From Candidatus Parcubacteria bacterium (GTDB lineage: Bacteria > Patescibacteriota > Microgenomatia > Levybacterales > GWA1-39-11), in contig QZIP01000011.1 in NCBI GenBank assembly GCA_003599595.1, forward strand, positions 2,638-66,637: 64,000 nucleotides of DNA. Reading direction: 5' to 3'. Position numbers and translations under genes: made by a program. The notes under the pieces were generated by a model. It was not told the origin of the DNA, did not search any database, and worked only from the letters and a program-made list of their open reading frames with translations. Numbering within the stretch: the stretch's first letter is position 1; each line of letters opens with the position of its first letter. Shown piece after piece: positions 6,281 through 53,085 of this stretch.

Positions 6281-6400
6281 TGACAAATGAGGCTCAAATG
6301 CTTAAATGTTATAAAATTTAGATTTTAAATTTTGGATTTCATTTGATATTTGAAATTTGGATTTTGGATTTTTAAGGGTTTGTTGCTTGTTTAGAGATTG
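6281..6400. repeat. AT-rich short-unit repeat cluster (CAAATGnCAAA / TTTGAAATTTGGATTTTGGATTT)
   Basis: Degenerate tandem units of about 10 bp. The same family occurs at 7249-7350, 10694-10870, 15590-15700, 22925-22990, 31770-31830, 50990-51100 and 52780-53085. Confidence 0.55.
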
Positions 6401-6475
6401 GAATAATTAGGTGAATTAGGTCAATTATTAACGATTGTAAAATAAGTTCCAGACCTGTATAATACCCTCAAAAGG

Positions 6476-8234: not shown

Positions 8235-10676
8235 ATGAAAAAATTAGAAGGCCTATCTCAAAAAGTTTTTATTGATAGATATTCCCTAAAAGATAAAAAA
8301 GGTAATCCTCTTGAAAAAACGCCAGTTGAAATGTGGCGCCGCGTAGCAAAAGCAGTTGCCCAAAATGAGAAAAAAGAAAATCAAAAGTTTTGGGAAAAAG
8401 AATTTTACTATGCCTTCAAAGACTTTAAATATATCCCTGGGGGAAGGATTTTAGCAGGTGCCGGAACAGGCTTTTCTGTTACTTACTACAATTGTTTTGT
8501 TATCCCCAGTCCCAAAGATTCCCGTGATGGTATTTTGGAAACCCTAAAGCAAATGGTTGAAATTATGGCAAGGGGTGGAGGAGTAGGGATTAATATGTCT
8601 TCTCTTAGGCCGCGTGGCTCAAGGGTTAAAAAAGTCAATGGTTTTTCCTCAGGTCCCTGTAATTGGGCAGAGCTTTTCTCAGTTGCTACAAAAGATATTA
8701 TCCAGCAGGGAGGAACCAGGCGCGGTGCTTTAATGTTAATGCTTTGGGACTGGCACCCAGACATTGAAGAATTTATTACCGTCAAACAGGATCTAACCCG
8801 TATCAATGGTGCCAATCTCTCAGTTTGTGTATCGGACAAATTTATGGAAGCTGTTGAAAAAGATGGAGATTGGGAACTTGCTTTTCCTGACACTTCTGAC
8901 CCTGAGTATGATGCAAAATGGGATGGAGACCTTGAAGTTTGGCGCAGTCTGGGTAAAAAGGTTGAGGTTGTAAAAACCGTAAAAGCCAGAAAGATATGGG
9001 ACCTAATAGCTGATGCCGCCTGGCGGTCAGCAGAACCAGGTGTTGTCTTTATGGAGCGTTATAACAAGATGAACAATAATTGGTACTGGAATAGGATAAA
9101 TTGTGTAAATCCTTGTGGAGAAGAGGGATTAGCTCCTTGGGGAGTTTGTAATCTTGGATCAATTAATCTCTCTGCTTTTGTAAAAGGCAAAGACATAGAC
9201 AAAAAGGCTACTTTTGATTTTGAACTCCTTAAAAGAGTGGTCAAGTCAGCTGTCCGTCTTCAGGACAATGTGGTAGATATGGATCCTTATGTTTTTCCCG
9301 GTATTAAAAAAACACAGCTTGAAGGAGAAAGAAGAATTGGCGTGGGGACAATGGGTCTTGGTGACACGCTCATTAGGCTTCATCTGCGCTACGGCTCTCC
9401 AGAATCTCTAGGCTTTATTGAAAAAGTATATAAGCTTATTAGGGATGAGGCTTATTTAGCTTCTATTGAGGCTGCCAAGGAAAAAGGTGTTTTCCCTAAA
9501 TTTGATAAGGAAAAATATCCTCAGGGTAAGTTTATCCAGACTTTACCCAAAAATATTGTTGCTAAAATTAAAGAATTTGGTATAAGAAATTCAATAATAT
9601 TAACTCAGGCTCCAACCGGTAGCACTTCTTTGATGGCAAACACCACGTCAGGTATAGAACCGGTTTTTGAGTTTGAATTTATCAGACGCGACAGACTTGG
9701 TGAACATGTTGTTAGACATTATCTGTATGAAGATTGGTATAAAAAACATGAGCAGGAAGTAAAAGACGGTAAGACTAAAAAGCCTGATTGGTTTGTTTCT
9801 GCCAATGAACTTTCTCCGGAGGATCATATTTTTGCTCAGGCAACCATTCAAAAATATGTTGATGCTTCTATTTCAAAAACAGTTAACGCTCCCAAGACTC
9901 ACACAGTAGAAGACGTGAAAAAAATATATAACCTTGCCTACAAACTCGGTCTTAAAGGTATAGCTTATATGAGAGAAGGATCCCGTGTGGGAGTTTTTGA
10001 GAGAAAGGAAGACAAAAAAGACGATAAAAAAGAAGAGCCAAAACAACTGCCCGTTATTAGTAAGAGACCTATGGTAATCCAGGGGCTCACTTATCAAACC
10101 CAAACTCCTTTAGGTGATGCGTTTATAACAATTAACAGTGATAAACAAGATAATCCTTTTGAATTATTTATCACAATCGGAAAATCAGGATCGGATGTGG
10201 CAGGTATGGCAGAAGCATTGGGTAGGGTGATCTCTTTAGTCCTGCGTTTACAAAGTCCGGTTGCTTCCCGTGAAAGAATAAGACAAATCATTGCTCAGCT
10301 TGCTGGTATTGGTGGTATGAGATCTGTAGGTTTTGGAGAAAATAGGGTAAAATCTCTTCCGGATGCAGTTGCTAAAGTGTTTGCAGAGCATTTTGGTTTC
10401 AAAATAAACGGTAAAATATTAGACGTTAAAAAAGATGGGGTTAAAAACGGGGAATATAAAAATGGTGAGGTAAAAGAAAAGCTTAATGGAGACCTTGTAC
10501 ACAATCAATCAAATGGAGACTTAAACAAGTCTATGGTACTGCAGCAGCTAACCTTATCAAGCGATCAATCTGTTCATGATGGTCTTTTTGATCTTTGCCC
10601 CAGTTGCGGCGGTGCCACCCTGGCCCATGAAGAAGGCTGCAAGAAGTGTTATTCCTGCGGCTACTCAGAGTGTTAA
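8235..10676 (+). CDS. nrdJ: Class II adenosylcobalamin-dependent ribonucleotide reductase
   Basis: 813 aa with typical class II RNR N-terminus (FIDRYSLKD...PVEMWRRVA...YIPGGRILAGAGT), catalytic-core motifs (NPCGEE, SCNLGSINL) and a C-terminal CxxC...CxxC zinc ribbon. Followed by a PduO-type adenosyltransferase. Confidence 0.9.
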   Translation: MKKLEGLSQKVFIDRYSLKDKKGNPLEKTPVEMWRRVAKAVAQNEKKENQKFWEKEFYYAFKDFKYIPGGRILAGAGTGFSVTYYNCFVIPSPKDSRDGILETLKQMVEIMARGGGVGINMSSLRPRGSRVKKVNGFSSGPCNWAELFSVATKDIIQQGGTRRGALMLMLWDWHPDIEEFITVKQDLTRINGANLSVCVSDKFMEAVEKDGDWELAFPDTSDPEYDAKWDGDLEVWRSLGKKVEVVKTVKARKIWDLIADAAWRSAEPGVVFMERYNKMNNNWYWNRINCVNPCGEEGLAPWGVCNLGSINLSAFVKGKDIDKKATFDFELLKRVVKSAVRLQDNVVDMDPYVFPGIKKTQLEGERRIGVGTMGLGDTLIRLHLRYGSPESLGFIEKVYKLIRDEAYLASIEAAKEKGVFPKFDKEKYPQGKFIQTLPKNIVAKIKEFGIRNSIILTQAPTGSTSLMANTTSGIEPVFEFEFIRRDRLGEHVVRHYLYEDWYKKHEQEVKDGKTKKPDWFVSANELSPEDHIFAQATIQKYVDASISKTVNAPKTHTVEDVKKIYNLAYKLGLKGIAYMREGSRVGVFERKEDKKDDKKEEPKQLPVISKRPMVIQGLTYQTQTPLGDAFITINSDKQDNPFELFITIGKSGSDVAGMAEALGRVISLVLRLQSPVASRERIRQIIAQLAGIGGMRSVGFGENRVKSLPDAVAKVFAEHFGFKINGKILDVKKDGVKNGEYKNGEVKEKLNGDLVHNQSNGDLNKSMVLQQLTLSSDQSVHDGLFDLCPSCGGATLAHEEGCKKCYSCGYSEC

Positions 10677-10693
10677 GCATAAAATCCGATAAA

Positions 10694-10870
10694 AAATTTC
10701 TAATTTCAAACAGCCATTTTAAAGTTCAAAGTGCACCCGCCGCGCGAAGCGGGAAGTTCAAAGTTGCAGTTTAAAGTTTATAGTTGTAAATAATTTTGAA
10801 CTATTAACTGCAATTTTGCATTTTTAATCCGATCGAATCGGATTTTAATTTTGAACTTTGAATTGAAACA
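10694..10870. repeat. Composite intergenic repeat: GC hairpin CCCGCTTCGCGCGGCGGGTGCACTTTGAAC, TTTGAACTTT units and palindrome AATCCGATCGAATCGGATT
   Basis: The reverse complement of 10730-10790 matches 53028-53080 (TCCCGCTTCGCG.GGCG.GTGCACTTTGA). The palindrome AATCCGAT-N3-AATCGGATT recurs at 51076-51096 and, in related form, at 52786-52810. Confidence 0.55.
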
Positions 10871-10872
10871 TT

Positions 10873-11430
10873 ATGCCAATTTACACCAAAAAAGGAGATC
10901 AAGGGCAAACATCACTTCTAAATAAACAAAAGGTCTGGAAAAATTCCCAAAGGACAACTGCTTATGGAACTATCGATGAATTAAATAGTCTACTCGGTGT
11001 CGTAGTTGCCGAAATTGAAAACTCAGAATTCATGATTCATGATTCAGAATTCAAAAATCGGATAATTAGTATCCAAAATGACCTATTTCACATTGGTTCG
11101 TCTCTTGCCAATCCAGACAGTGATAAGGTTGACATCAATCTTTTAGAAAAAGTAAAAGATTTTGAAAAAAATATTGATGAAATGACAGCTCAAATGCCGC
11201 CCCTAAGTGCGTTTATTCTTCCCGGAGGGGGAAGAGTAGGATCTCTTTTTCAGTTTGCCCGCGCCACGGCTCGTCGTGCCGAAAGAGAAGCAGTTGCACT
11301 TTTTCAAAAAGAAAAAATCCAAGAAAATATTCTTGTTTATCTAAACCGCCTTTCAGACTTGCTCTTTACTTTATCCCGCTTTGCAAATTATAAGGAAAAT
11401 AAAAAAGAAGTCATTTGGAAAAAATCCTAG
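10873..11430 (+). CDS. pduO: PduO-type ATP:cob(I)alamin adenosyltransferase
   Basis: MPIYTKKGDQGQTSLLNKQKVWKNSQRTTAYGTIDELNSLLG matches the PduO/MMAB-family N-terminus. Contains a short low-complexity insert (SEFMIHDSEF). Confidence 0.85.
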   Translation: MPIYTKKGDQGQTSLLNKQKVWKNSQRTTAYGTIDELNSLLGVVVAEIENSEFMIHDSEFKNRIISIQNDLFHIGSSLANPDSDKVDINLLEKVKDFEKNIDEMTAQMPPLSAFILPGGGRVGSLFQFARATARRAEREAVALFQKEKIQENILVYLNRLSDLLFTLSRFANYKENKKEVIWKKS

Positions 11431-11529: not shown

Positions 11530-11604
11530 ATTGAGAATAAACGTTGAGGAAATAAATAACGTAAATTAAGTCTTGAATAAATACTAATATACTAGTATAT
11601 TAGT

Positions 11605-11745
11605 AGCACTGTTGGTTTAACCACTGCCCTGTTGAATAACGGGGTGGGAAGGTTGAAGATTTTGGGAATTAGGTGTAAATCCTAAACTGTGCCGCAGCGG
11701 TAATTTCGATCATCTCGAATAAGTCCGAAGACCGACCAACATTGA
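11605..11745 (+). promoter_or_regulatory. Candidate cobalamin (AdoCbl) riboswitch aptamer with non-canonical element order
   Basis: B12-box-like CCACTGCC...GGGTGGGAAGG (11621-11652). Then GGGAAttaGGTGtAAaTCC...CCGCAGCGGTAA (11664-11702), matching the GGGAA-N3-GGTG-N-AA-N-TCC / CCCGC core consensus with exact spacing. Then GAAGACCGACC (11726-11736). An intrinsic terminator follows. Context: directly downstream of nrdJ and pduO. Confidence 0.35.
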
Positions 11746-11783
11746 TCCCGAGCAGGAAACTGAAAATATATTTGAAGTTTAAC

Positions 11784-13967: not shown

Positions 13968-14583
13968 ATGCAAATATATTTGAATAGAAATAGTACATAA
14001 AATGTAGCACTTCGCTAAAGCTTCGCGCTACACACTTCTTACCCATTTTAAAAGCGTGGTAACCTGTTAATTGTGGCCTTCCACGCGTAGCTCTTTACAA
14101 AGTAAAGAGCGAAGTGTGGAGATGGCCGAGAATGACCCGGCGTCCAAAAACAGTACCTATAAAATATCTACAAGCGTAGTCAATCTTTAATTGTCGTTTT
14201 AGGCTTAACTGATTGACAAGGGTGTCCTAAAACCAAGGTTAAAAGATAATATAAGGTAACCAGCCTCATATCCTTTTCTCAACTTTGTTTATGCCCGTAC
14301 TGTCCCGTTGAGAAGGGTCAATACAGACAGAGCTTAGTTTACGTAAGCAAGATTGCGTTCGTAAGCTAGGTCACTAGAACTTGGTCTAGCATTTATGTTT
14401 TGAGACTGTTTTATCCGCCTGTTAAGGCGAGATCTCGCTTTCGCGGACGGCTGTGTCTCAAAGCCGGCTTGCAATTTTAAAAGTGCTATCTCTGTCGATG
14501 CAATGCATCCCCAAGACCAATATTATACCAAATTTTACCCTCAAAAGCAAAAAATTCAAGCTATAATTAGCTCAAACCACTCA

Positions 14584-22776: not shown

Positions 22777-22802
22777 ACACTTTGTCGTCTACATTTATGT
22801 TG

Positions 22803-22874
22803 TGGGCCTGCTTGGGTTCGAACCAAGGACATCTAACTTATAAGGTTAGCGCTCTGCCACTGAGCTACAGGCCC
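22803..22874 (-). tRNA. tRNA-Ile with anticodon UAU
   Basis: Reverse complement is GGGCCTGTAGCTCAGTGGCAGAGCGCTAACCTTATAAGTTAGATGTCCTTGGTTCGAACCCAAGCAGGCCCA. It forms a cloverleaf. The anticodon stem is CTAAC/GTTAG and the loop CTTATAA gives anticodon TAT. The acceptor and D-arm are Ile-like. CCA is not encoded. Confidence 0.8.
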
Positions 22875-23095
22875 CGGCAAAATGAATTATAGCCTAAATT
22901 AGGCATAGGGGCAATAGAAGTCATTTTATAAAGAAGACACCTTTAAAAATTCAAAAGTCAAAATTCAAAAGTCAAAAGTTAGGTGTCGCAAGCGACTATT
23001 GATAAGCAGTTAAAGAAAACACCCTTTAAAGTTATAAATTATTACTACGTGCTACAAGCCACAAGCTAAAAGCTAGCTTTGAGCTGTGAACTTTT

Positions 23096-31619: not shown

Positions 31620-32925
31620 ATCCAGAAAATATACAGATTTTATTTGTGTATGTCTTCTCACAGTTAGCCTTAAGATAACACGGATGAAACTGATCCGTGA
31701 AATCTTATTTTGTAGGACAGATGTAAGGTCCGCATTACCGTAAAGCATTTAGGCCGCGGGAAGAGAAGGAGTAAATAAATTTGACATTTGAAATTTAAAA
31801 TTTGAAATTGGAAATTTATTTCCTCTCTCCCCGTTGTCTTTTTGCTTACGGTCAATGATGATCTGATTCAGTCCCGCAGGCTGGATGAGGGTGAGAGCAA
31901 AGAGAGCGGAGACGGTGATGCTGATGAGAGGGAGGAAAAATGAAAAGGAAGTCGTTACGCGGCAGTAGACAAAGAAGAGAAAGTAAGCCAACAGTCCAAG
32001 TGAAAGATCCTAACAGGATGGGACATTTGCAAACTGAAGGGCGCACATTTGTTGTCTCTCGGGTGTCTCCAGCCTCCGGGCTGTCCGAACCCTTCAGGGC
32101 ATCACCAGCGTGGGTAATACCGGCTCGTTGATATAGTACCAATAGAGATAAAGGGAGCCCACCCCCTCCCTTGATCCACTCTCGTAAAATCTGGAAGGAG
32201 TTAAGGAGTTGCTCAAAGGTGATATTGTGATAGGACTACAGAGGCTTTTCGAGGGTGTAAAAATAACTCCCGGACAAAGCCAGACTCTATACATGGATCC
32301 ATTCGGAGCATTCATTGATCCTCCTTCAGATCCCACACTTAATCCGCTCAGAGGATTCCAAGTCACCCTTGCTCCTGGTCCCAATCTTCCTCTTGAAGCA
32401 GTAGTGGGCATTCTGCTCGGCCTATGGTCGACGGGGAAGGAGTCAGAAGGTATGCAACCGGTCTGCGTCGATAAAGCAGAGGTAGGAAAGGACGGGCGAG
32501 CTCTTCTTGCGGCTTCAGGATCCACTGGGATCTATTTCATTTATCCCGCGTAATCGTTCAGAAGGAGGATGTGATGACAATCGGCACAAAGATCGGACCA
32601 GGAAGACGAGCTCGGACAGGACCACAATCCCGTCAAGGTCTTCAGATGGAAACAACTGGCGGCCCAGACAAGGTTGACCCCAAAGAATGGCAAAAAGGTT
32701 GCTGGGCTTGCCCGGAGTATCCTTGCAACTTCACCGTGCACAAGTGTCCCCATAGAGGTTGCGTGTTCGGATAGTTCGACAATTTGGAATCTGGATTTCC
32801 ATCATCAAGGCAAGAGGAGCGCTTGGGTTTGTGCGGAGGTCCTATTTGACCTCCAACCTTACTCAAGCGCTTTTCTTTTGGCAAAAAAGTTGCCCCAAAG
32901 CCTAATTTAGGTTAAAATTAAGGGT
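31620..32925. other. GC-rich ORF-free region of about 1.3 kb; candidate large structured RNA or foreign-DNA remnant
   Basis: About 50% GC against about 35% in flanks. Only short overlapping ORFs on both strands. Internal hairpins such as GGAGGTCCTATTTGACCTCC. Lies directly 5' of tRNA-Ser(UGA). Confidence 0.3.
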
Positions 32926-39957: not shown

Positions 39958-41061
39958 TTAACGGCCCCTTAGTTTATTCAGTTTCAAAAGAGCCCAGCGT
40001 GTTTTATCTGCTCCTTTATAAAAATTATAAAGAACCGGGTTGATTATTAAATCATAACTTCCAATAAATTCAGTTAATTCTCCTCCATATCCCTGTTTAA
40101 ATCTATGAAATCCATACCAGGGATCACGGGTGTCAGGCTCTGGTCCCATTGCTCCCCACATGTCAAATTTTTTAAGTCCTAAGCGTTTTCCAAGTTTTAT
40201 TGCCTCCCAAGCTATTAAATTTGAGGCCATAACCTCTTTAAATTTACTGCTTGATGCGCCATAAGGGTAGTAAAGCGTATCTTGAAAAGTAAAAAGCACC
40301 CAGGAAACAAGAGTATGTATACTACCATTGTCTGCTTTATGTTTTGCATTCAATAAATGATAGGCTAGCCTATTTTTGTCTATTTTTTCAATTTCTTCTT
40401 TTGCCCCTTTAGTCTTAGGAGATGAATTTGGGTTAGGGTTCAAACAAATCGTCTCCCAAAGCAGTTTATGATAGTCTGGGGTGTGGGCATAAAACCTTTG
40501 TCTTGTTGTTGTTTCTTGGGTCAAGTTCAAATAGTTATTAAAAGCCTCTTTTGAATTGTCTTTTTCTATAAATACACCTTTTTTCTGAGCAAGCCGTACA
40601 TTGTAGCGGGTTTTAGATTGCATTTGGGCTAAAAGTTCTTCCTCACTTCTTGTTAAATCCAGCACAAAAGTATATTTAGTAAACAACGGATGAAAAGCAA
40701 CTCTCAATCTTTCATCAACTTTGAACTTTGAACTTTGAACTTTGAACTTAATTATGTTCGGTTCCAACTGTATAAAAATACACTTTTCTTCCTTGCCAAT
40801 TCTTTGGATCTCATCAAGAATTTCTTTTTTGGGAAAATTTCCTTTTGGAAGATATCCCACAAAATAAGGTAAATAAGGGATTTTATGTATTGTTAAAGTA
40901 AAACCATCTATTATTTTGTTGTTTTCAACCAAGGCTCGTCTTATAACCTTAATCCCAGTTACTTTTCTAAATTCTCCCCACTCAAAACTCTGCAAAGGAT
41001 GTGTAGCAACTTTGTTGTAATCTTTTCTTTTTTTATTATCCACATCTATAAATTTTTTCAT
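39958..41061 (-). CDS. FemAB-family peptidoglycan bridge aminoacyltransferase, carrying an in-frame tandem-repeat insert
   Basis: HPLQSFEWGEFRK near the N-terminus resembles the FemX/MurM HFLQSWEWGE motif. CDS positions 40717-40750 contain a TTTGAACTT x5 array encoding FKVQSSKFKV. Confidence 0.6.
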   Translation of the reverse strand: MKKFIDVDNKKRKDYNKVATHPLQSFEWGEFRKVTGIKVIRRALVENNKIIDGFTLTIHKIPYLPYFVGYLPKGNFPKKEILDEIQRIGKEEKCIFIQLEPNIIKFKVQSSKFKVDERLRVAFHPLFTKYTFVLDLTRSEEELLAQMQSKTRYNVRLAQKKGVFIEKDNSKEAFNNYLNLTQETTTRQRFYAHTPDYHKLLWETICLNPNPNSSPKTKGAKEEIEKIDKNRLAYHLLNAKHKADNGSIHTLVSWVLFTFQDTLYYPYGASSSKFKEVMASNLIAWEAIKLGKRLGLKKFDMWGAMGPEPDTRDPWYGFHRFKQGYGGELTEFIGSYDLIINPVLYNFYKGADKTRWALLKLNKLRGR

Positions 41062-45228: not shown

Positions 45229-47439
45229 CTACAAATTATATATTTGATAAATTTTAACATCTCCATTTTGATACACAACTTTCCCAATTTGGTCAAATTT
45301 TTTCTCAAACAAATCTTTGTATTTTTCCCGCTCTAAACCACCTATGTAAACATATTTGACGTTATACTTTCTAAGTATTTTTGTTGTTTTATTAGTGTCC
45401 GTATTTTCGTAAATTATTTGTATGTCTGTAATTCTTGGTGCTGGAACATCATAGCTTCCTCTCCACAACCATTCATGTACAGTCCAGCCAAGCACAGTCG
45501 GTATCCCTGTATTTGCTGAGATTCTTGCATAATCCGTATAAGAATCTCCCTGAGCTTCAAGCATAACAGGTTGTCCCTTTATATTTTTATTAATCCATAG
45601 AATCGCTTCATAATCATAAGGCCGTAGTGTTTTTAAATATTTTGTTCCATCAAGTCCTTTATAGTTAATAAATTTATTATAGTAAGAAGGTATGGCAAAA
45701 TAAGGATAAGCAAGAACTATTCCAATAAAAATCATTGATGACAAGAAAAAGGGAAAGCTTTTTGTAGTCCTTGTTATTTTAACCAAAATATAAGCACTTG
45801 AGATTGATAAAAGAATAAAAGATTGATAGACCAACTTAAACATAGTATTTGCCCGGTAATGATTTGGATAAATATCTTTTACATAAACAAACTCCGGTAC
45901 TATTATTAAGAGTGTGGATAAAAAGATCAATAGAATAACAAAATAATCTTGCACTTTCACCTGATATCTTCTTATTTTTAAAATAAATATTGAATATGAA
46001 AAAACAAAAAAGTAAAAAAATCCATAAAGAATAAAAAGTTGCCAAAGAGTAGATTTTTGGCAATGATTTGCTTCAAAAAGAAAAGGTCCAATTTTGCCGA
46101 TTTGAGTTAAAAAATGAGGGGAGCATAATACTCCAATACCGGAAACAAAAGGCTTGAAATTTAAATTAAAAGGTAAAGTAAAAACAAAATATCCAACAAC
46201 CAATACTCCAATATATTTTAAAGAGCTATAAATTTGATATTTGATATTTGATATTTGATATTTGATATTATCGTTCGAATTAGACATTTCTTTTTTAACA
46301 GTAAGCGCAATAATTACCAGCGACGATAATAGCATATAAATGGCTCCATCCCACGCATTTGTCATATACATTACTGCTAACACAAGTGCTAGCAAAGTAA
46401 AAATTAAAAACTCTCGATTATAAAAAAAACTTTTAAGTTTTAAGTTTTGGTTTTGACTTTTGACTTTTGACTTTTGAGTTTGCTTGTTTTCGGAAGATCT
46501 CAAAAAAATCGCAAGCAGTAATGCAATTGTCAACAACACAAACGGAATATCTGAAACGTGTCCGTGTAGATCTGAAACTACAAAAGAATACAGTGGAAAT
46601 TCGTGGATTGTAAAAGGAATAAACCTTGTAGCATTAGGATACCAATAGCTGTTTGGAAAAGAGCTGGCAGAAAAAAATAAAGACCAAAAAGGAATAGGAT
46701 TGTCTGTAGTGTAAGGCTTAAAAAGAGAATAAATGGTATGTAAATTGCCGGCAAATGACACAAATAATCCTGCAAAAATTCCTGTTATTACACTATTTCT
46801 TGATATTTTTCTAAAATCAAAAAGATTTAAAGCAATAGAAAAGGAAGAAGCAAATGTGAAAGAGAAAATAGTAGCAATCATTAAGTTGTAGGAAATATTT
46901 GAGGGTATTTGCGTAAATTTGGTCATAAGAGCTGCTACAAAATGACCATAATAATAGTAATTAATAGAATGGGGAGCAAACCACATATCAGCCGCCGGTA
47001 GATAATCGCTTCTAAGTATTGAATTCATAAATCCGAAATCCATATATTTTTCCAATCCGTAAATATCAGGCCCAAAACCTTTTATAAAAGACCAAAAAAG
47101 AATACCTATAAAAAACAATATCTCAAAAGCGCTATATGTTAAAAATTTTTCTTTAAAATATTTAATTGCAGATCTTTGTTTAATCAAAATTAAAATATTT
47201 ACAAATAATACAATTAATATTGAAAAATAAATTGTTTCAAGAGAAAATTGTGCAATTCTAAGAATTGAAAGCAGAAAAACAATATATGAAACAAAAATTA
47301 GACCAATTGTTTTTGCGAAGATATAGCCTTTGTCTGAAAAATCTTTAAAAATAAGTGAGGTGATCGGTAGAGATGAAGATCCAATTATCCAAAAAGCCAT
47401 CCACCACTGAATTACTAAAATCAACTCTTGTGTAGACAT
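45229..47439 (-). CDS. Large polytopic membrane protein (736 aa), possibly DUF2298/GT-C-like; carries two in-frame repeat inserts
   Basis: More than 12 hydrophobic helices plus a C-terminal soluble domain. In-frame arrays at 46233-46269 (ATTTGAT repeats encoding NIKYQISNIKYQI) and 46430-46483 (TTTTGAC repeats encoding KSKVKSQNQNLKLKS). Confidence 0.4.
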   Translation of the reverse strand: MSTQELILVIQWWMAFWIIGSSSLPITSLIFKDFSDKGYIFAKTIGLIFVSYIVFLLSILRIAQFSLETIYFSILIVLFVNILILIKQRSAIKYFKEKFLTYSAFEILFFIGILFWSFIKGFGPDIYGLEKYMDFGFMNSILRSDYLPAADMWFAPHSINYYYYGHFVAALMTKFTQIPSNISYNLMIATIFSFTFASSFSIALNLFDFRKISRNSVITGIFAGLFVSFAGNLHTIYSLFKPYTTDNPIPFWSLFFSASSFPNSYWYPNATRFIPFTIHEFPLYSFVVSDLHGHVSDIPFVLLTIALLLAIFLRSSENKQTQKSKVKSQNQNLKLKSFFYNREFLIFTLLALVLAVMYMTNAWDGAIYMLLSSLVIIALTVKKEMSNSNDNIKYQISNIKYQIYSSLKYIGVLVVGYFVFTLPFNLNFKPFVSGIGVLCSPHFLTQIGKIGPFLFEANHCQKSTLWQLFILYGFFYFFVFSYSIFILKIRRYQVKVQDYFVILLIFLSTLLIIVPEFVYVKDIYPNHYRANTMFKLVYQSFILLSISSAYILVKITRTTKSFPFFLSSMIFIGIVLAYPYFAIPSYYNKFINYKGLDGTKYLKTLRPYDYEAILWINKNIKGQPVMLEAQGDSYTDYARISANTGIPTVLGWTVHEWLWRGSYDVPAPRITDIQIIYENTDTNKTTKILRKYNVKYVYIGGLEREKYKDLFEKKFDQIGKVVYQNGDVKIYQIYNL

Positions 47440-50989: not shown

Positions 50990-51100
50990 AACGTAAAGCG
51001 AAAAGTGCAAAGCGCAAAACTAAAGTTTAAAACTTAAAACTTTGACTTTTGAGTTTTGGTTTTGAGCTTTTAATCCGATTAAATCGGATTTGAGCTTTTA
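50990..51100. repeat. Same composite repeat family between the two GT39 paralogues
   Basis: AAAGTGCAAAGCGCAAAACTAAAGTTTAAAACTTAAAACTTTGACTTTTGAGTTTTGG followed by AATCCGATTAAATCGGATTTGAGC. Confidence 0.5.
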
Positions 51101-52783
51101 CTTTTTAGCTTTCTGAAAGATAAACAGTGTTGGTCTATCAAAAACATTCACCGTTTCTTCAAATCTAAAAACAGGATCTCCTAAATAAGTTGTTTTACAA
51201 AAAAAATCACAAGGAGTTTCATAAATCTTATTATATCCAAGTTTGCCTGAAAAAAGATTTCTATAAAATGTACTGCTAATGGGAAATCTTTTAGGATTCA
51301 CAAGTCTTGTTCTGGTTACTCTTGGACTTGCAAGAATAATATAGTCACTTTCCCCCACCTCTGTCAAGAAATTACTATTGTGTGGATTATGGTCTATATT
51401 GTAAAAATTATAAAGTTTAATATTGTTAAAATACTGGTTAAAAGGAAGAATTCCCAAGTCATAAACCTCACTTAAAATTCTTGCATCTGGGCTAATTTCC
51501 CCTTTTGCAACAATACTGGCAGAAGCCCTAGTATCACCTTTTAAATAAACTGTTGTAAAGAAAGAAAAAGCAAAAAACAAATTACTTAAAATTATAATTA
51601 CTAAAAAAATAATATTAATTTTTTTTAAACTATTTATGGCACTTTTTTTATTCAGTTGTTCAGCTAACGAAATTAAAAAAAGTGAAATTATTAGGTATGC
51701 AAATGGTAGACTTGGAACAATATACCTTGTCCACTTTACAAAAAGAAAAGATTGAGAGAAAAATATAATTACAAAAAACATAATTAAAAACATACTCTTT
51801 TTACCGCCCCTTTTTAAAGAGACAAAAGACAAATAAAGCAGTGCAAAAATAAAAGTCACAGAAAGTAGTGGATTAAGTAAAAAAGGAAGCGTATTTATAG
51901 ACTGGTAAAGTACAGGAGTAGTGTCATAAAATCCCTGTGTGTAAAAAACCGGTAGAGCTCCTATAGCAACTGAGGATTCATATTTAAAACTGTTTTGGAA
52001 AGAAGAGAAGTCTAAAAAAACAAAAGGAGAAAATATTGAAAAGGTTGTTAAAGAAAGAAATAGAATCCCAAAAATTTGTTTTAGTTTCAACATTAATCTT
52101 TGTTTGTGATTTACCAATAAAAAAACAATTACAGGAACCGGAAGAAATATAAGAGAGGATATTTTAATAGAAATTAGTGTTCCCACAACAACAGAAGAAT
52201 AAAGTAGATACTTATATTTTTGCTTTATAATGTAGCTTAACAAACAATAAAACAAAAGAAGAGAAAAAAATGTAAGCCACATTTCAAAAGTTCCAAAATG
52301 TGAATATTGAATAAATCCGGGGCTTGCTGATGCAAGGATTAGAGCAAGAAAACCCGTCCTTTTATCTTTAATTAATTTACCCGTATTATATAAAAGAAAG
52401 AGAATAAGAAAGGAAAAAATTAAAGAGTAAATCCTACTAATGATTATTGTTTGGCCAAATGAAATTATAAAGTTATCAATAACCGGATTGTTAAATAGGG
52501 AATTTGCCAAATTCCAGACAAGACCCTGAAAATAAATTGCATAAATTGGCAGGCTGCCATAGGCAAAAAAATGCGGATTCATTTGTTGGGGAAATCTTAA
52601 TTGTGTAACAGCAGAAGCAATATTTCTTTCATCAGGATGAAAATAAAATGGAGAGCCCCAGTTGAGATTATAAACTCTAAAAAATACTCCTAGTAGTATT
52701 ATTATTAATAAAAGTATGTTTGTAAAACTTAATTTTATTCTAATTAAATCCATAATGCTAATCTCTAAAAGATCAAATCTCAA
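51098..52783 (-). CDS. GT-C fold membrane glycosyltransferase (GT39/ArnT/PMT-like), paralogue
   Basis: NWGSPFYFHPDERNIASAV at the equivalent position. About 15 TM helices. Confidence 0.65.
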   Translation of the reverse strand: MRFDLLEISIMDLIRIKLSFTNILLLIIILLGVFFRVYNLNWGSPFYFHPDERNIASAVTQLRFPQQMNPHFFAYGSLPIYAIYFQGLVWNLANSLFNNPVIDNFIISFGQTIIISRIYSLIFSFLILFLLYNTGKLIKDKRTGFLALILASASPGFIQYSHFGTFEMWLTFFSLLLFYCLLSYIIKQKYKYLLYSSVVVGTLISIKISSLIFLPVPVIVFLLVNHKQRLMLKLKQIFGILFLSLTTFSIFSPFVFLDFSSFQNSFKYESSVAIGALPVFYTQGFYDTTPVLYQSINTLPFLLNPLLSVTFIFALLYLSFVSLKRGGKKSMFLIMFFVIIFFSQSFLFVKWTRYIVPSLPFAYLIISLFLISLAEQLNKKSAINSLKKINIIFLVIIILSNLFFAFSFFTTVYLKGDTRASASIVAKGEISPDARILSEVYDLGILPFNQYFNNIKLYNFYNIDHNPHNSNFLTEVGESDYIILASPRVTRTRLVNPKRFPISSTFYRNLFSGKLGYNKIYETPCDFFCKTTYLGDPVFRFEETVNVFDRPTLFIFQKAKK

Positions 52784-53085
52784 ATCTCCCCCCCGATTAA
52801 ACCGGGGTCAAATATCAAAAACAAGTTTCGTCCAGAGGACGATCTAGTCCAAAGGACTATTGGCCTGTGGTCAAAGCCTTTGGCTGACAAAGATGATTAA
52901 AGAATAAAGAACAATGATTAACGAATAATGATTGATGAATAATGAATACAAAAACAAAATCATCAATCATCAATCATCAATCATTAATCAAAGTAATTGG
53001 TTTTTAGCTTTGAATTAGGTTTTGATTTTCCCGCTTCGCGAGGCGAGTGCACTTTGATCTTTGCACTTTAAAGTAATCAGATCAA
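52780..53085. repeat. Same composite repeat family
   Basis: TCAAATCTCAAATCTCCCCCCCGATTAAACCGGGGTCAAAT and TTTCCCGCTTCGCGAGGCGAGTGCACTTTGATCTTTGCACTTTAAAG. Confidence 0.5.

Follow-up and report, generated by a model that had tools for sequence, protein, structure and literature searches.

Tandem repeats of seven nucleotides have been described from several bacteria, namely the cyanobacterial STRR, GGGAATC in Xanthomonas, GGGGA(T/C)T in Nostoc and TAACTGA in Beggiatoaceae (PMC4692102; PMC4679880). An excess of heptameric SSRs in bacteria, together with a polymerase-footprint slippage hypothesis, is reported in PMC4692102, citing Mrazek 2007; according to that paper, the 7-nt excess has been known since 2007 and has received neither a tested explanation nor a detailed study. 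The best-known heptamer tract within a reading frame is that of neuO in E. coli K1, where 5'-AAGACTC-3' is repeated 3-53 times (mode 20) at the 5' end and varies in copy number both between and within strains, with 65.6% of 64 genomes being OFF (PMC13001214). In the literature searched, we found no description of heptamer repeats in Patescibacteria. Repetitive DNA of another kind, the Rickettsia palindromic elements (RPEs), reportedly described by Ogata and colleagues in 2000, is said to comprise mobile elements of 100-150 bp with a conserved sequence that lie between genes and also, in frame, within conserved genes, at surface positions tolerating extra residues.

Here we analysed a window of 64,000 nt, meaning the whole stretch of DNA under study, from a MAG of the candidate phyla radiation in which the genes around FemAB are syntenic with those of Levybacteria. 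Two minus-strand genes carry tandem arrays within their reading frames, and TRF and the ORF map agreed in placing the tracts where a preliminary description had located them. The first gene (39958-41061) is an intact ORF of 367 aa for a FemAB-family (lipid II aminoacyl transferase-like) protein (Pfam PF02388, E 1.5e-36), with S. aureus FemX as its best solved relative (6snr, E 9.6e-23) and 4758 homologues, the closest of which is 61% identical. Its array at 40717-40749 (minus strand) consists of 4.7 copies of AACTTTG (sense CAAAGTT; 33 nt, period 7, 100% matches by TRF) and encodes KFKVQSSKFKV, residues 105-115. The unit had initially been given as a 9-mer, TTTGAACTT, in five copies; this nine-nucleotide unit was rejected, as both TRF and direct reading give a period of 7. 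The array lies inside a variable linker (site 1) that extends from IQLEPN to HPLFT. In the AF2 model, pLDDT is ~78-81 over residues 101-130, compared to a mean of 90.5, and falls to 47-67 at a second variable site; as modelled, the site-1 array encodes a surface linker of the enzyme.

The second gene (45229-47439, minus strand) contains three arrays and encodes a polytopic DUF2298 membrane protein of 736 aa (Pfam PF10060, E 7e-100) with ~12 or more hydrophobic segments by hydropathy prediction. A perfect array at 46232-46269 (minus strand; ATTTGAT, sense ATCAAAT, period 7, 5.4 copies, 38 nt, 100% matches by TRF) encodes NIKYQISNIKYQI (residues 391-403) between the predicted membrane segments 363-381 and 406-424. 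This site is filled in only about half of 53 DUF2298 orthologues, which points to an insertion. Further upstream in the protein, a compound TTTTAAG/TTTTGAC tract at 46431-46481 (minus strand; period 7, 7.4 copies, 88% matches by TRF) reads in sense orientation as 3.9 copies of GTCAAAA (46451-46477), CCAAAA and 2.6 copies of CTTAAAA (46431-46448). It encodes QTQKSKVKSQNQNLKLKS (residues 320-337) in the loop between the predicted segments 298-316 and 338-363, where arrays also occur in at least eight DUF2298 orthologues. Mapping onto the predicted topology thus placed the DUF2298 arrays between membrane segments, and the tracts of both genes are translated through into the peptides first reported. 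The two host proteins, both on one contig, were singletons in a collection of 15 billion proteins.

Period-7 repeat tracts are real, in frame and more numerous than expected by chance. The unit is 7 nt in all three in-gene tracts described above, and in the window as a whole we observed seven perfect period-7 repeats with 2.5 or more copies compared to 0.1 expected from Markov shuffles, and 27 with two or more compared to 7.2; at periods 8-15 there was no excess over the shuffles within the window. Eight of the 13 arrays in the window are intergenic, lying in the 18% of sequence outside ORFs, where arrays are ~7-fold denser. By TRF, the spacers contain ATCAAAG (2.9 copies, 519-538); a cluster of TTAAATT, TTTAGAT, ATTTGAA and TTTGGAT between divergent genes (6302-6372); AAAATTC/AAAAGTC (4.9 copies, 22946-22979); an AAATTTG-type array (5.9 copies, 31777-31818); AAAACTT (4 copies) and TTTGAGT (4.4 copies) at 51016-51070; and, at 52773-52990, a spacer made up mostly of heptamer arrays (TCAAATC, 2.3 copies; ATGAATA-type, 8 copies; AATCATC, 4.7 copies). 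AAAAGTC at 22946-22979 also forms the DUF2298 tract at 46451-46477, there on the other strand. A short array of ATTCATG (2.7 copies, 11028-11046, plus strand, TRF) lies inside a putative ORF (10873-11430) and is too short for an in-frame stop. Rfam and tRNA scans gave no match overlapping the arrays. At least eight different units were found in the window, related via a TCAAA-like core.

We then surveyed 84 related Levybacteria-type loci (1.43 Mb) centred on FemAB. These contained 128 period-7 arrays where one would be expected by chance, and 5, 1, 0, 0... arrays at periods 8-15. The longest tract was 39 nt (5.6 copies), with a mode of 31-34 nt in the 1.43 Mb, and 48 canonical units were found among 99 arrays. 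Units were shared within loci more often than in shuffles (8 observed versus 3.4, P about 0.02). Together with the common period, the AT-rich units and the TCAAA-like core on the sense strand, this supports the earlier proposal that in-gene and intergenic arrays form one family. In this FemAB-biased sample, 110 of the 128 arrays fell in ORFs; the crude ORF maps label too much sequence as coding (88-94%), so the split of locus arrays between coding and non-coding DNA is an approximation. FemAB genes held 57 arrays (40 of 84 genes) and DUF2298 genes 32 (12 of 55 genes). With sampling centred on FemAB, this gene accounted for 52% of in-ORF arrays versus ~6% of the sequence sampled, a concentration for which loop tolerance may be an insufficient explanation.

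How reading frames survive such arrays had been ascribed to unit lengths that are multiples or near-multiples preserving the frame. This is incorrect: every unit is 7 nt, and 7 is coprime to 3. It is the total tract length, rather than that of the unit, that preserves the frame. Three units make up 21 nt, or seven codons, and each array is read in all three phases, so that a 7-residue-periodic peptide arises as a by-product. The ORFs were intact in 84 of 84 FemAB and 55 of 55 DUF2298 orthologues. In 24 arrays an in-frame stop would arise from the consensus unit, and here 24 of 36 mismatches fall in the stop codon; the substitution at the would-be stop is usually the sole mismatch of the array and keeps it open. 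In three loci (L038, L019 and L072) a variant found in unit k reappears in unit k+3, resulting in a 21-nt superperiod. Perfect non-coding runs fall off with copy number (40, 9, 2, 2 and 1 for 2.x-6.x copies; only 54 runs), and coding runs from 2.x upward number 135, 36, 41, 8, 1 and 1, with a bump at 4.x. The intact ORFs, the base changes at would-be stops and the 4.x bump support selection for frame preservation, one of the two explanations originally offered. Ribosomal frameshifting on a slippery heptamer (X XXY YYZ) was considered and rejected: AAATTTC fits this pattern but most units do not, and a shift would only truncate the protein.

Comparison of orthologues revealed how the arrays change over time. 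Orthologues with only 52-62% identity carry heptamer arrays at the same sites, built from other units (among them AAATTGG, AACTCTC, CAAATTT and TGGTCAA). Most orthologues have a FemAB site-1 linker of 16-23 aa, and about a dozen have one of 25-47 aa, with or without a detectable array, and 7-residue periodicity is still present in most of the array-free site-1 linkers. Between L016 and L058/L044 (79-82% nucleotide identity, 54-nt linkers), CTAGAAG is replaced by CTACAAA, a two-base change in every unit; between L039 and L085, CAAATTT and CAACTCT likewise differ in every unit. As the differences recur in every copy, the arrays undergo concerted evolution at constant linker length. L039 and L085 are also nearly identical over ~170 nt across the site-2 array (113 nt exact), which indicates recombination. 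An apparent 7-nt length difference between these two at site 2 proved to be a boundary mismatch with no indel.

Each of five linkers that carry an array at FemAB site 2 is 16 aa long, compared to 9 aa in two array-free orthologues (L027, L031) that share the LDKNK end; the difference between filled and empty sites is 7 aa, or three units. More broadly, this site went from 6-9 aa to 16 aa without an obvious seed. Some array-free site-2 linkers are 15 aa, and site-1 lengths are not quantised in sevens. Given the FemAB linker lengths, the three-unit rule is not clean. The expectation that the arrays are lineage-specific insertions holds for part of them: the DUF2298 arrays and FemAB site 2 behave as insertions. 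At FemAB site 1, where nearly all orthologues have an array or a 7-residue relic and linker length is unchanged, only the unit is lineage-specific.

Replication slippage together with unit-to-unit homogenisation, already put forward for the overall heptamer excess in bacteria, is the most likely cause of the arrays. Since they are present in non-coding DNA and their copies can be 100% identical in DNA, the process works at the DNA level rather than being driven by the peptide. We consider it probable that heptanucleotide slippage is filtered by selection to permissive loops and that coding arrays change in three-unit steps. The genome, like its relatives, would generate short perfect AT-rich 7-nt arrays by slippage and homogenisation. 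These would be densest between genes and, within genes, would persist only where extra residues are tolerated, as in the FemAB linker and the DUF2298 loops, the encoded peptides being nearly neutral. A change by one or two units would shift the frame and be purged by selection, so that coding arrays would change by three units or convert without a change in length, and would consequently stay near 4-5 copies (31-34 nt). One point counts against simple slippage. From a seed of 1.x copies it can add only a single unit at a time, so that a needed gene would have to pass through frameshifted intermediates or a multi-unit stutter to reach 4.x copies; neither was observed.

Could the peptides themselves be the reason that the arrays persist? 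Useful periodic hydrophilic or amphipathic peptides might tune the length or flexibility of the FemAB linker and the charge of the DUF2298 loops, much as has been suggested for tandem repeats of Borg proteins. The arrays do fall in loops or in regions modelled with low confidence, the site-1 linker keeps a similar length in most orthologues across the clade, the encoded peptides are mostly rich in K, N, S, Q, E and I, and repeats recur at the same sites in homologues, as in the Borg aaTR proteins (PMC9879509). However, peptide sequence is not conserved, with units and peptides differing freely among relatives, and the same arrays are found in non-coding DNA. Each peptide is set by a 7-nt unit read in three phases, unlike the product of selection on a peptide motif. 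Moreover, GC-rich segments and other insertions fill the same sites in L014, L078 and L032, suggesting permissiveness rather than a specific need. We therefore regard an adaptive role of this kind as rather doubtful.

Equally tentative is the broader idea that in Levybacteria-type CPR bacteria a heptamer-specific homogenising process, by unit conversion or three-unit slippage, keeps in-frame arrays at the same envelope-enzyme loops over phylum-scale time. The arrays might then act as evolvability devices, giving rise to rapidly changing linkers and to low-frequency cells with FemAB or DUF2298 OFF. If this were true, it would imply cryptic phase variation in episymbionts that is hidden from consensus assemblies.

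The second explanation in the preliminary description, slippage-prone contingency tracts, fared worse. Here, gain or loss of one 7-nt unit would toggle two cell-envelope enzymes in a subpopulation, as in neuO. Several features invite this comparison: the tracts lie inside ORFs and their unit is not a multiple of three, FemAB and DUF2298 are cell-envelope enzymes and as such a typical contingency class, arrays are strongly concentrated in these two across the clade, and the homogeneity of copies implies ongoing slippage or conversion. Nevertheless, no frameshifted or OFF allele was found among the 84 FemAB and 55 DUF2298 orthologues, of which many carry arrays, these being consensus assemblies from which minority OFF cells would escape. 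The tracts reach at most 5.6 copies, compared to 3-53 (mode 20) for neuO (PMC13001214). The array-bearing cluster P0036, whose five protein variants are nearly identical and come from 13 contig records, showed no difference in copy number, and seven protein clusters of at least 90% identity had no indel at the arrays. Candidate copy-number variants in clusters at this identity were dismissed, as their length differences traced to start-codon calls or to one indel elsewhere. A metagenome scan that allowed a variable gap at the L001 site-1 tract matched nothing, the source contig included, which places that sample outside the collection scanned. Genes often carry more than one tract, placed in loops of the middle region rather than near the 5' end, an arrangement more in keeping with tolerance than with switching. 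Intact ORFs and short tracts are evidence against contingency switching, which we consider unlikely.

Still less probable is the insertion of a preformed cassette of ~33 nt, made elsewhere by a templated or stuttering polymerase in break repair or by array copying, and inserted whole. Such an origin could account for the length mode of 31-34 nt with its sharp fall at 35 nt, for the use of one unit at two sites of the same gene (CAAAGTT in L001, AACTCTC in L005) alongside the within-locus sharing above shuffles, and for the gain at FemAB site 2 without a seed. It would also fit the (AAATTTC)n arrays of equal size in metagenome contigs of 28-66% GC. On the other hand, the flanks of 88 arrays showed no common motif, target duplication or terminal signature, the few non-coding arrays scored become rarer from one copy class to the next and show no 4.x mode, site-1 arrays evolve in place at constant length, and the range of at least 48 different units argues against a single template. 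The sharp 31-34-nt peak of (AAATTTC)n was set aside as proof of a fixed-size cassette, because the increase between 28 and 34 nt among metagenome matches stems in part from ascertainment, with one fixed rotation searched; only the drop at 35 nt is robust in that spectrum. Finally, although short reads can mis-assemble short repeats, an assembly or sequencing artefact is effectively refuted, as arrays of 33-38 nt are far below read length, stand in frame within intact ORFs, bear signatures of selection at would-be stops and reappear at orthologous positions in assemblies obtained independently (JGI, NCBI and third-party re-assemblies).

Slippage filtered by selection, the reading we prefer, would make this clade a natural experiment in which one mutational process can be followed with and without the constraint of a reading frame. 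With the signatures of coding arrays (the 4.x mode, the 21-nt superperiod, single-base changes where a stop would arise, and concerted evolution without a change in linker length), slippage and conversion could be quantified in bacteria that have not been cultured. The arrays also hold a warning for annotation: low-complexity loops of 7-residue periodicity in CPR proteins are by-products of DNA repeats.

The arrays resemble several known systems without matching any of them. Like RPEs, they consist of repetitive DNA that occurs in spacers as well as, in frame, at tolerant protein positions; unlike RPEs, they are tandem heptamers of 20-40 nt with neither a conserved sequence nor a palindrome. 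With other bacterial heptamer SSRs they share tandem 7-nt units, an excess at period 7 only, frequent occurrence in spacers and often 2-6 copies (PMC4692102; PMC4679880). However, those repeats use a single fixed unit or a small set of them in each genome (STRR1-3, TAACTGA, GGGAATC), in contrast to at least 48 different AT-rich units here, and are described as mainly intergenic with a possible regulatory or G-quadruplex role, whereas many of the present arrays are translated in frame at orthologous loops. As in neuO, a 7-nt unit lies in an ORF, full length is obtained in one of three copy classes, and three units correspond to seven residues (PMC13001214). The arrays described here differ in having no more than 5.6 copies, in lying mid-gene and often several to a gene, and in the OFF state being found in 0 of 84 and 0 of 55 orthologues. 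With the Borg aaTRs they have in common perfect nucleotide repeats within ORFs, an unbroken frame, A-rich sequence, a location in disordered segments or in membrane or extracellular proteins, and recurrence at the same positions in homologues (PMC9879509). Yet the Borg aaTR unit is divisible by three, whereas the unit here is 7 nt and the frame is kept only by the whole short tract.

The three AT-rich tracts reported in the preliminary description are present in the window, perfect or near-perfect and each within an ORF. The first (40717-40749) had been assigned a 9-mer unit, TTTGAACTT; as it shows period 7 with 100% matches, the unit is not that 9-mer but AACTTTG in plus-strand letters, in 4.7 copies. 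It lies in a minus-strand FemAB gene (39958-41061; 367 aa; Pfam FemAB, E 1.5e-36), where it is translated as KFKVQSSKFKV, residues 105-115. The other two lie in a minus-strand DUF2298 gene (45229-47439; 736 aa; Pfam DUF2298, E 7e-100). An ATTTGAT array (46232-46269; period 7, 5.4 copies, 100% matches) encodes NIKYQISNIKYQI at residues 391-403, and a compound tract (46431-46481; period 7, 7.4 copies, 88% matches), composed in order of TTTTAAG x2.6, TTTTGG and TTTTGAC x3.9, encodes QTQKSKVKSQNQNLKLKS at residues 320-337.

The period-7 arrays of the window are not due to chance. Counts of perfect period-7 repeats were 7 versus 0.1 in Markov shuffles at a minimum of 2.5 copies, and 27 versus 7.2 at a minimum of 2 copies; no comparable excess over the shuffles was observed for periods 8-15. 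Of 13 arrays passing a simple score, five fall within ORFs and eight in the 18% of sequence outside ORFs, with spacers such as 6302-6372 and 52773-52990 mostly made up of heptamer arrays. Most units share a TCAAA-like core on the sense strand. A tRNA-Ile gene (anticodon TAT; 22802-22874, minus strand) lies ~70 nt from an intergenic heptamer array (22946-22979), and a cobalamin riboswitch (11596-11754, plus strand; 60.4 bits) lies just downstream of an ORF (10873-11430) hosting a short heptamer array. The window also contains a tmRNA gene (14114-14512, minus strand; 94.5 bits).

The FemAB and DUF2298 proteins (RJQ27457.1 and RJQ27462.1, from a MAG labelled Candidatus Parcubacteria bacterium) each occur on a single 82-kb contig only, and no relative reaching 90% identity was found. 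The closest FemAB homologues are 52-62% identical, with Levybacteria forming the majority of the named ones, and the gene order DUF2298 - LytR - TIM - UvrD - FemAB is common to the window and the loci of the Levybacteria homologues. We compared 84 related loci centred on FemAB (1.43 Mb, window included). They contain 128 period-7 arrays versus 1 in a shuffle, while periods 8-15 yielded 5, 1, 0, 0... arrays; density ranged unevenly among genomes from 0 to 5 per 10 kb. Among 110 arrays in ORFs of at least 150 aa, 57 are in FemAB (spread over 40 of 84 genes, grouped at three positions) and 32 in DUF2298 (12 of 55 genes, at four or five loops separating conserved hydrophobic segments); the adjoining UvrD, TIM and LytR genes carry 1-4 arrays each.

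In an alignment of 23 FemAB orthologues, the window array occupies a hypervariable linker flanked by the conserved motifs IQLEPN and HPLFTKYTF (site 1). In many of these orthologues, the peptide is 7-residue periodic both in this linker and at a second variable site, which follows MWETL (site 2). Their DNA carries heptamer arrays at the same gene position with differing units, such as CAAAGTT x4.9 in locus L001 (CAAAGTT again at site 2), AAATTGG x4.7 in L004 and AACTCTC x4.6 in L005 (again x5 further along). In locus L046, ACAATTG x5.6 and AACATGT-type x4 arrays (6364-6438) lie directly upstream of or inside the annotated FemAB N-terminal extension; database start-codon calls in this cluster vary by 9-11 aa, a spread that probably arises from treating the arrays as coding sequence. 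A non-heptamer peptide segment, RQAQGKP, is repeated at site 2 of several distant orthologues (L042, L005 and protein P0118).

An AlphaFold2 model of the window FemAB protein (mean pLDDT 90.5, pTM 0.87) has pLDDT ~78-81 at residues 101-130, array included, and 47-67 at residues 206-232, the second variable site. The alignment to its best solved relative, S. aureus FemX (6snr), is interrupted at that site, where ~30 FemX residues remain unpaired between two aligned stretches. As the preliminary description had proposed checking, the DUF2298 arrays do map to loops, namely those linking predicted membrane segments 298-316 with 338-363 and 363-381 with 406-424. The FemAB array sites are filled by other kinds of insertion, GC-rich segments included, in some orthologues (e.g., L014, L032 and L078); the sites are therefore generally permissive. 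Several small GC-rich inverted repeats, e.g. CCCGCTTCGCGAGGCGAG, are found in a heptamer-array spacer of the window (52786-52890 and 53020-53046), and an in-frame GC-rich segment at site 1 of L078, CCCGCTTCGCCCGCGAAGCGAGGCGAG, closely resembles them. Such inverted repeats may represent another class of small repeats, likewise able to insert into permissive loops.

Seven and three are coprime, and three units equal 21 nt or 7 codons, so that any heptamer array of at least three units gives one cyclic heptapeptide regardless of phase. Sense-strand units must therefore be free of cyclic stop triplets or be corrected. For 24 in-ORF arrays, an idealised perfect version would hold an in-frame stop; in these, 24 of 36 mismatches to consensus fall in the would-be stop codon, in most arrays as the sole mismatch (e.g., AAATTGA AAATTTA AAATTGA AAATTGA AAATT in L038). 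In L038, L019 and L072, the variant base is repeated three units on, just past the detected array, forming a 21-nt superperiod. Thus, coding arrays are translated and subject at once to purifying selection and to a homogenising force. Together with the intact ORFs of all 84 FemAB and 55 DUF2298 genes, each single and full length, this supports the suggested selection for frame preservation.

The FemAB site-1 linker measures 16-23 aa in most orthologues and 25-47 aa in about a dozen, with or without a detectable DNA array, and most array-free site-1 linkers are still 7-residue periodic. This constant length and persisting periodicity argue that the array-bearing linker is old and its unit changes. 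Of the proposed lineage-specific insertions, the FemAB site-1 array is lineage-specific in its unit but not in the linker itself. The FemAB genes of L016, L044 and L058 (79-82% nucleotide identity) all have 54-nt linkers, yet the unit is CTACAAA in L058 and L044 versus CTAGAAG in L016, the same two differences recurring in each unit; likewise, L039 and L085 differ in register (CAAATTT versus CAACTCT). Such comparisons show concerted evolution of related FemAB genes at constant length. Arrays of one locus share identical units 8 times versus 3.4 in shuffles (P ~0.02), and units with at most one mismatch 38 versus 22.8 times (P ~0.002). The L039 and L085 genes, from Levybacteria and ~80-88% identical, also share a ~170 nt near-identical segment (10430-10700 in both; 113 nt exact) spanning the site-2 array, which suggests a recent recombination tract moving an array between lineages.

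In the 84 loci, arrays are most often 31-34 nt long (53 of 128), with a smaller peak at 27 nt, and the longest reaches 39 nt. Perfect period-7 runs were counted in 2.2 Mb of sequence, excluding arrays selected by metagenome pattern search. Non-coding runs fall by copy class (40, 9, 2, 2, 1 from 2.x to 6.x), and coding runs (135, 36, 41, 8, 1, 1 from 2.x) show a bump at 4.x. At site 2, all five array-bearing linkers are 16 aa, and the two array-free linkers that retain their LDKNK end (L027, L031) measure 9 aa, a gap of 7 aa or three units; the remaining array-free linkers span 6-15 aa, so this pattern is not clean.

Exact matches to (AAATTTC)x4 were found in at least 120 contigs of public metagenomes (L086-L205), whose GC ranges from 0.28 to 0.66; thus, AT-rich heptamer arrays are widespread even in GC-rich genomes. 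Two thirds lie in long ORFs in sense orientation. They are mainly 31-34 nt and seldom 35 nt or more; those in coding sequence comprise 69 of 28-34 nt, 8 of 35-41 nt and 2 that exceed this range. Because a single rotation was searched, the increase between 28 and 34 nt is in part artefactual, which does not apply to the fall at 35 nt. Some higher-GC contigs carry longer arrays, among them TTTGAAC x12, the unit of the window FemAB array, in L186 (757-841; 85 nt), and 186 nt of STRR-like CAGTCAA/CAGTGAA in L101 (3175-3360), resembling the cyanobacterial STRR unit CAACAGT. The phenomenon therefore reaches well beyond the Levybacteria-type clade.

The best-supported explanation is heptanucleotide slippage and homogenisation at the DNA level, filtered by selection. 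Slippage and homogenisation would generate the arrays, which are common in spacers; within genes, these would last only in permissive loops, in stop-free orientation and at frame-keeping tract lengths, changing length by three-unit steps only or having units converted at constant length. Phase variation, the suggested role as slippage-prone contingency tracts, is given lower confidence. Across seven clusters of proteins sharing 90% identity or more, no indel at an array was found, and in the array-bearing P0036 cluster, five near-identical variants in 13 contig records have identical tracts. In contrast, the heptanucleotide switch of E. coli neuO has 3-53 copies and is OFF in 65.6% of 64 genomes (PMC13001214). 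Given this and the intact ORFs, the contingency reading is not supported at consensus-genome level. Adaptive generation of linkers and insertion of a preformed cassette also appear less probable than slippage with homogenisation under selection, as does an artefact.

An excess of heptameric SSRs in bacteria is already known; the only hypothesis available in the literature attributes the preference for 7 nt to the stretch of DNA that the polymerase holds (PMC4692102). TAACTGA repeats of 2-6 copies have also been described (PMC4679880). These families share the 7-nt unit excess with our arrays, but they have fixed units and are treated as intergenic. No paper on heptamer repeats in Patescibacteria or Levybacteria was found in the literature searched. 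neuO shares the arithmetic of a 7-nt unit in an ORF but is a long, variable switch, and Borg in-ORF repeats (PMC9879509) are alike in position and effect, whereas every one of their unit lengths is a multiple of three. What is added here to the known heptamer excess is that, across a CPR clade, short heptanucleotide microsatellites are maintained in frame in orthologous loops of conserved enzymes, where selection and concerted evolution have left clear signatures.
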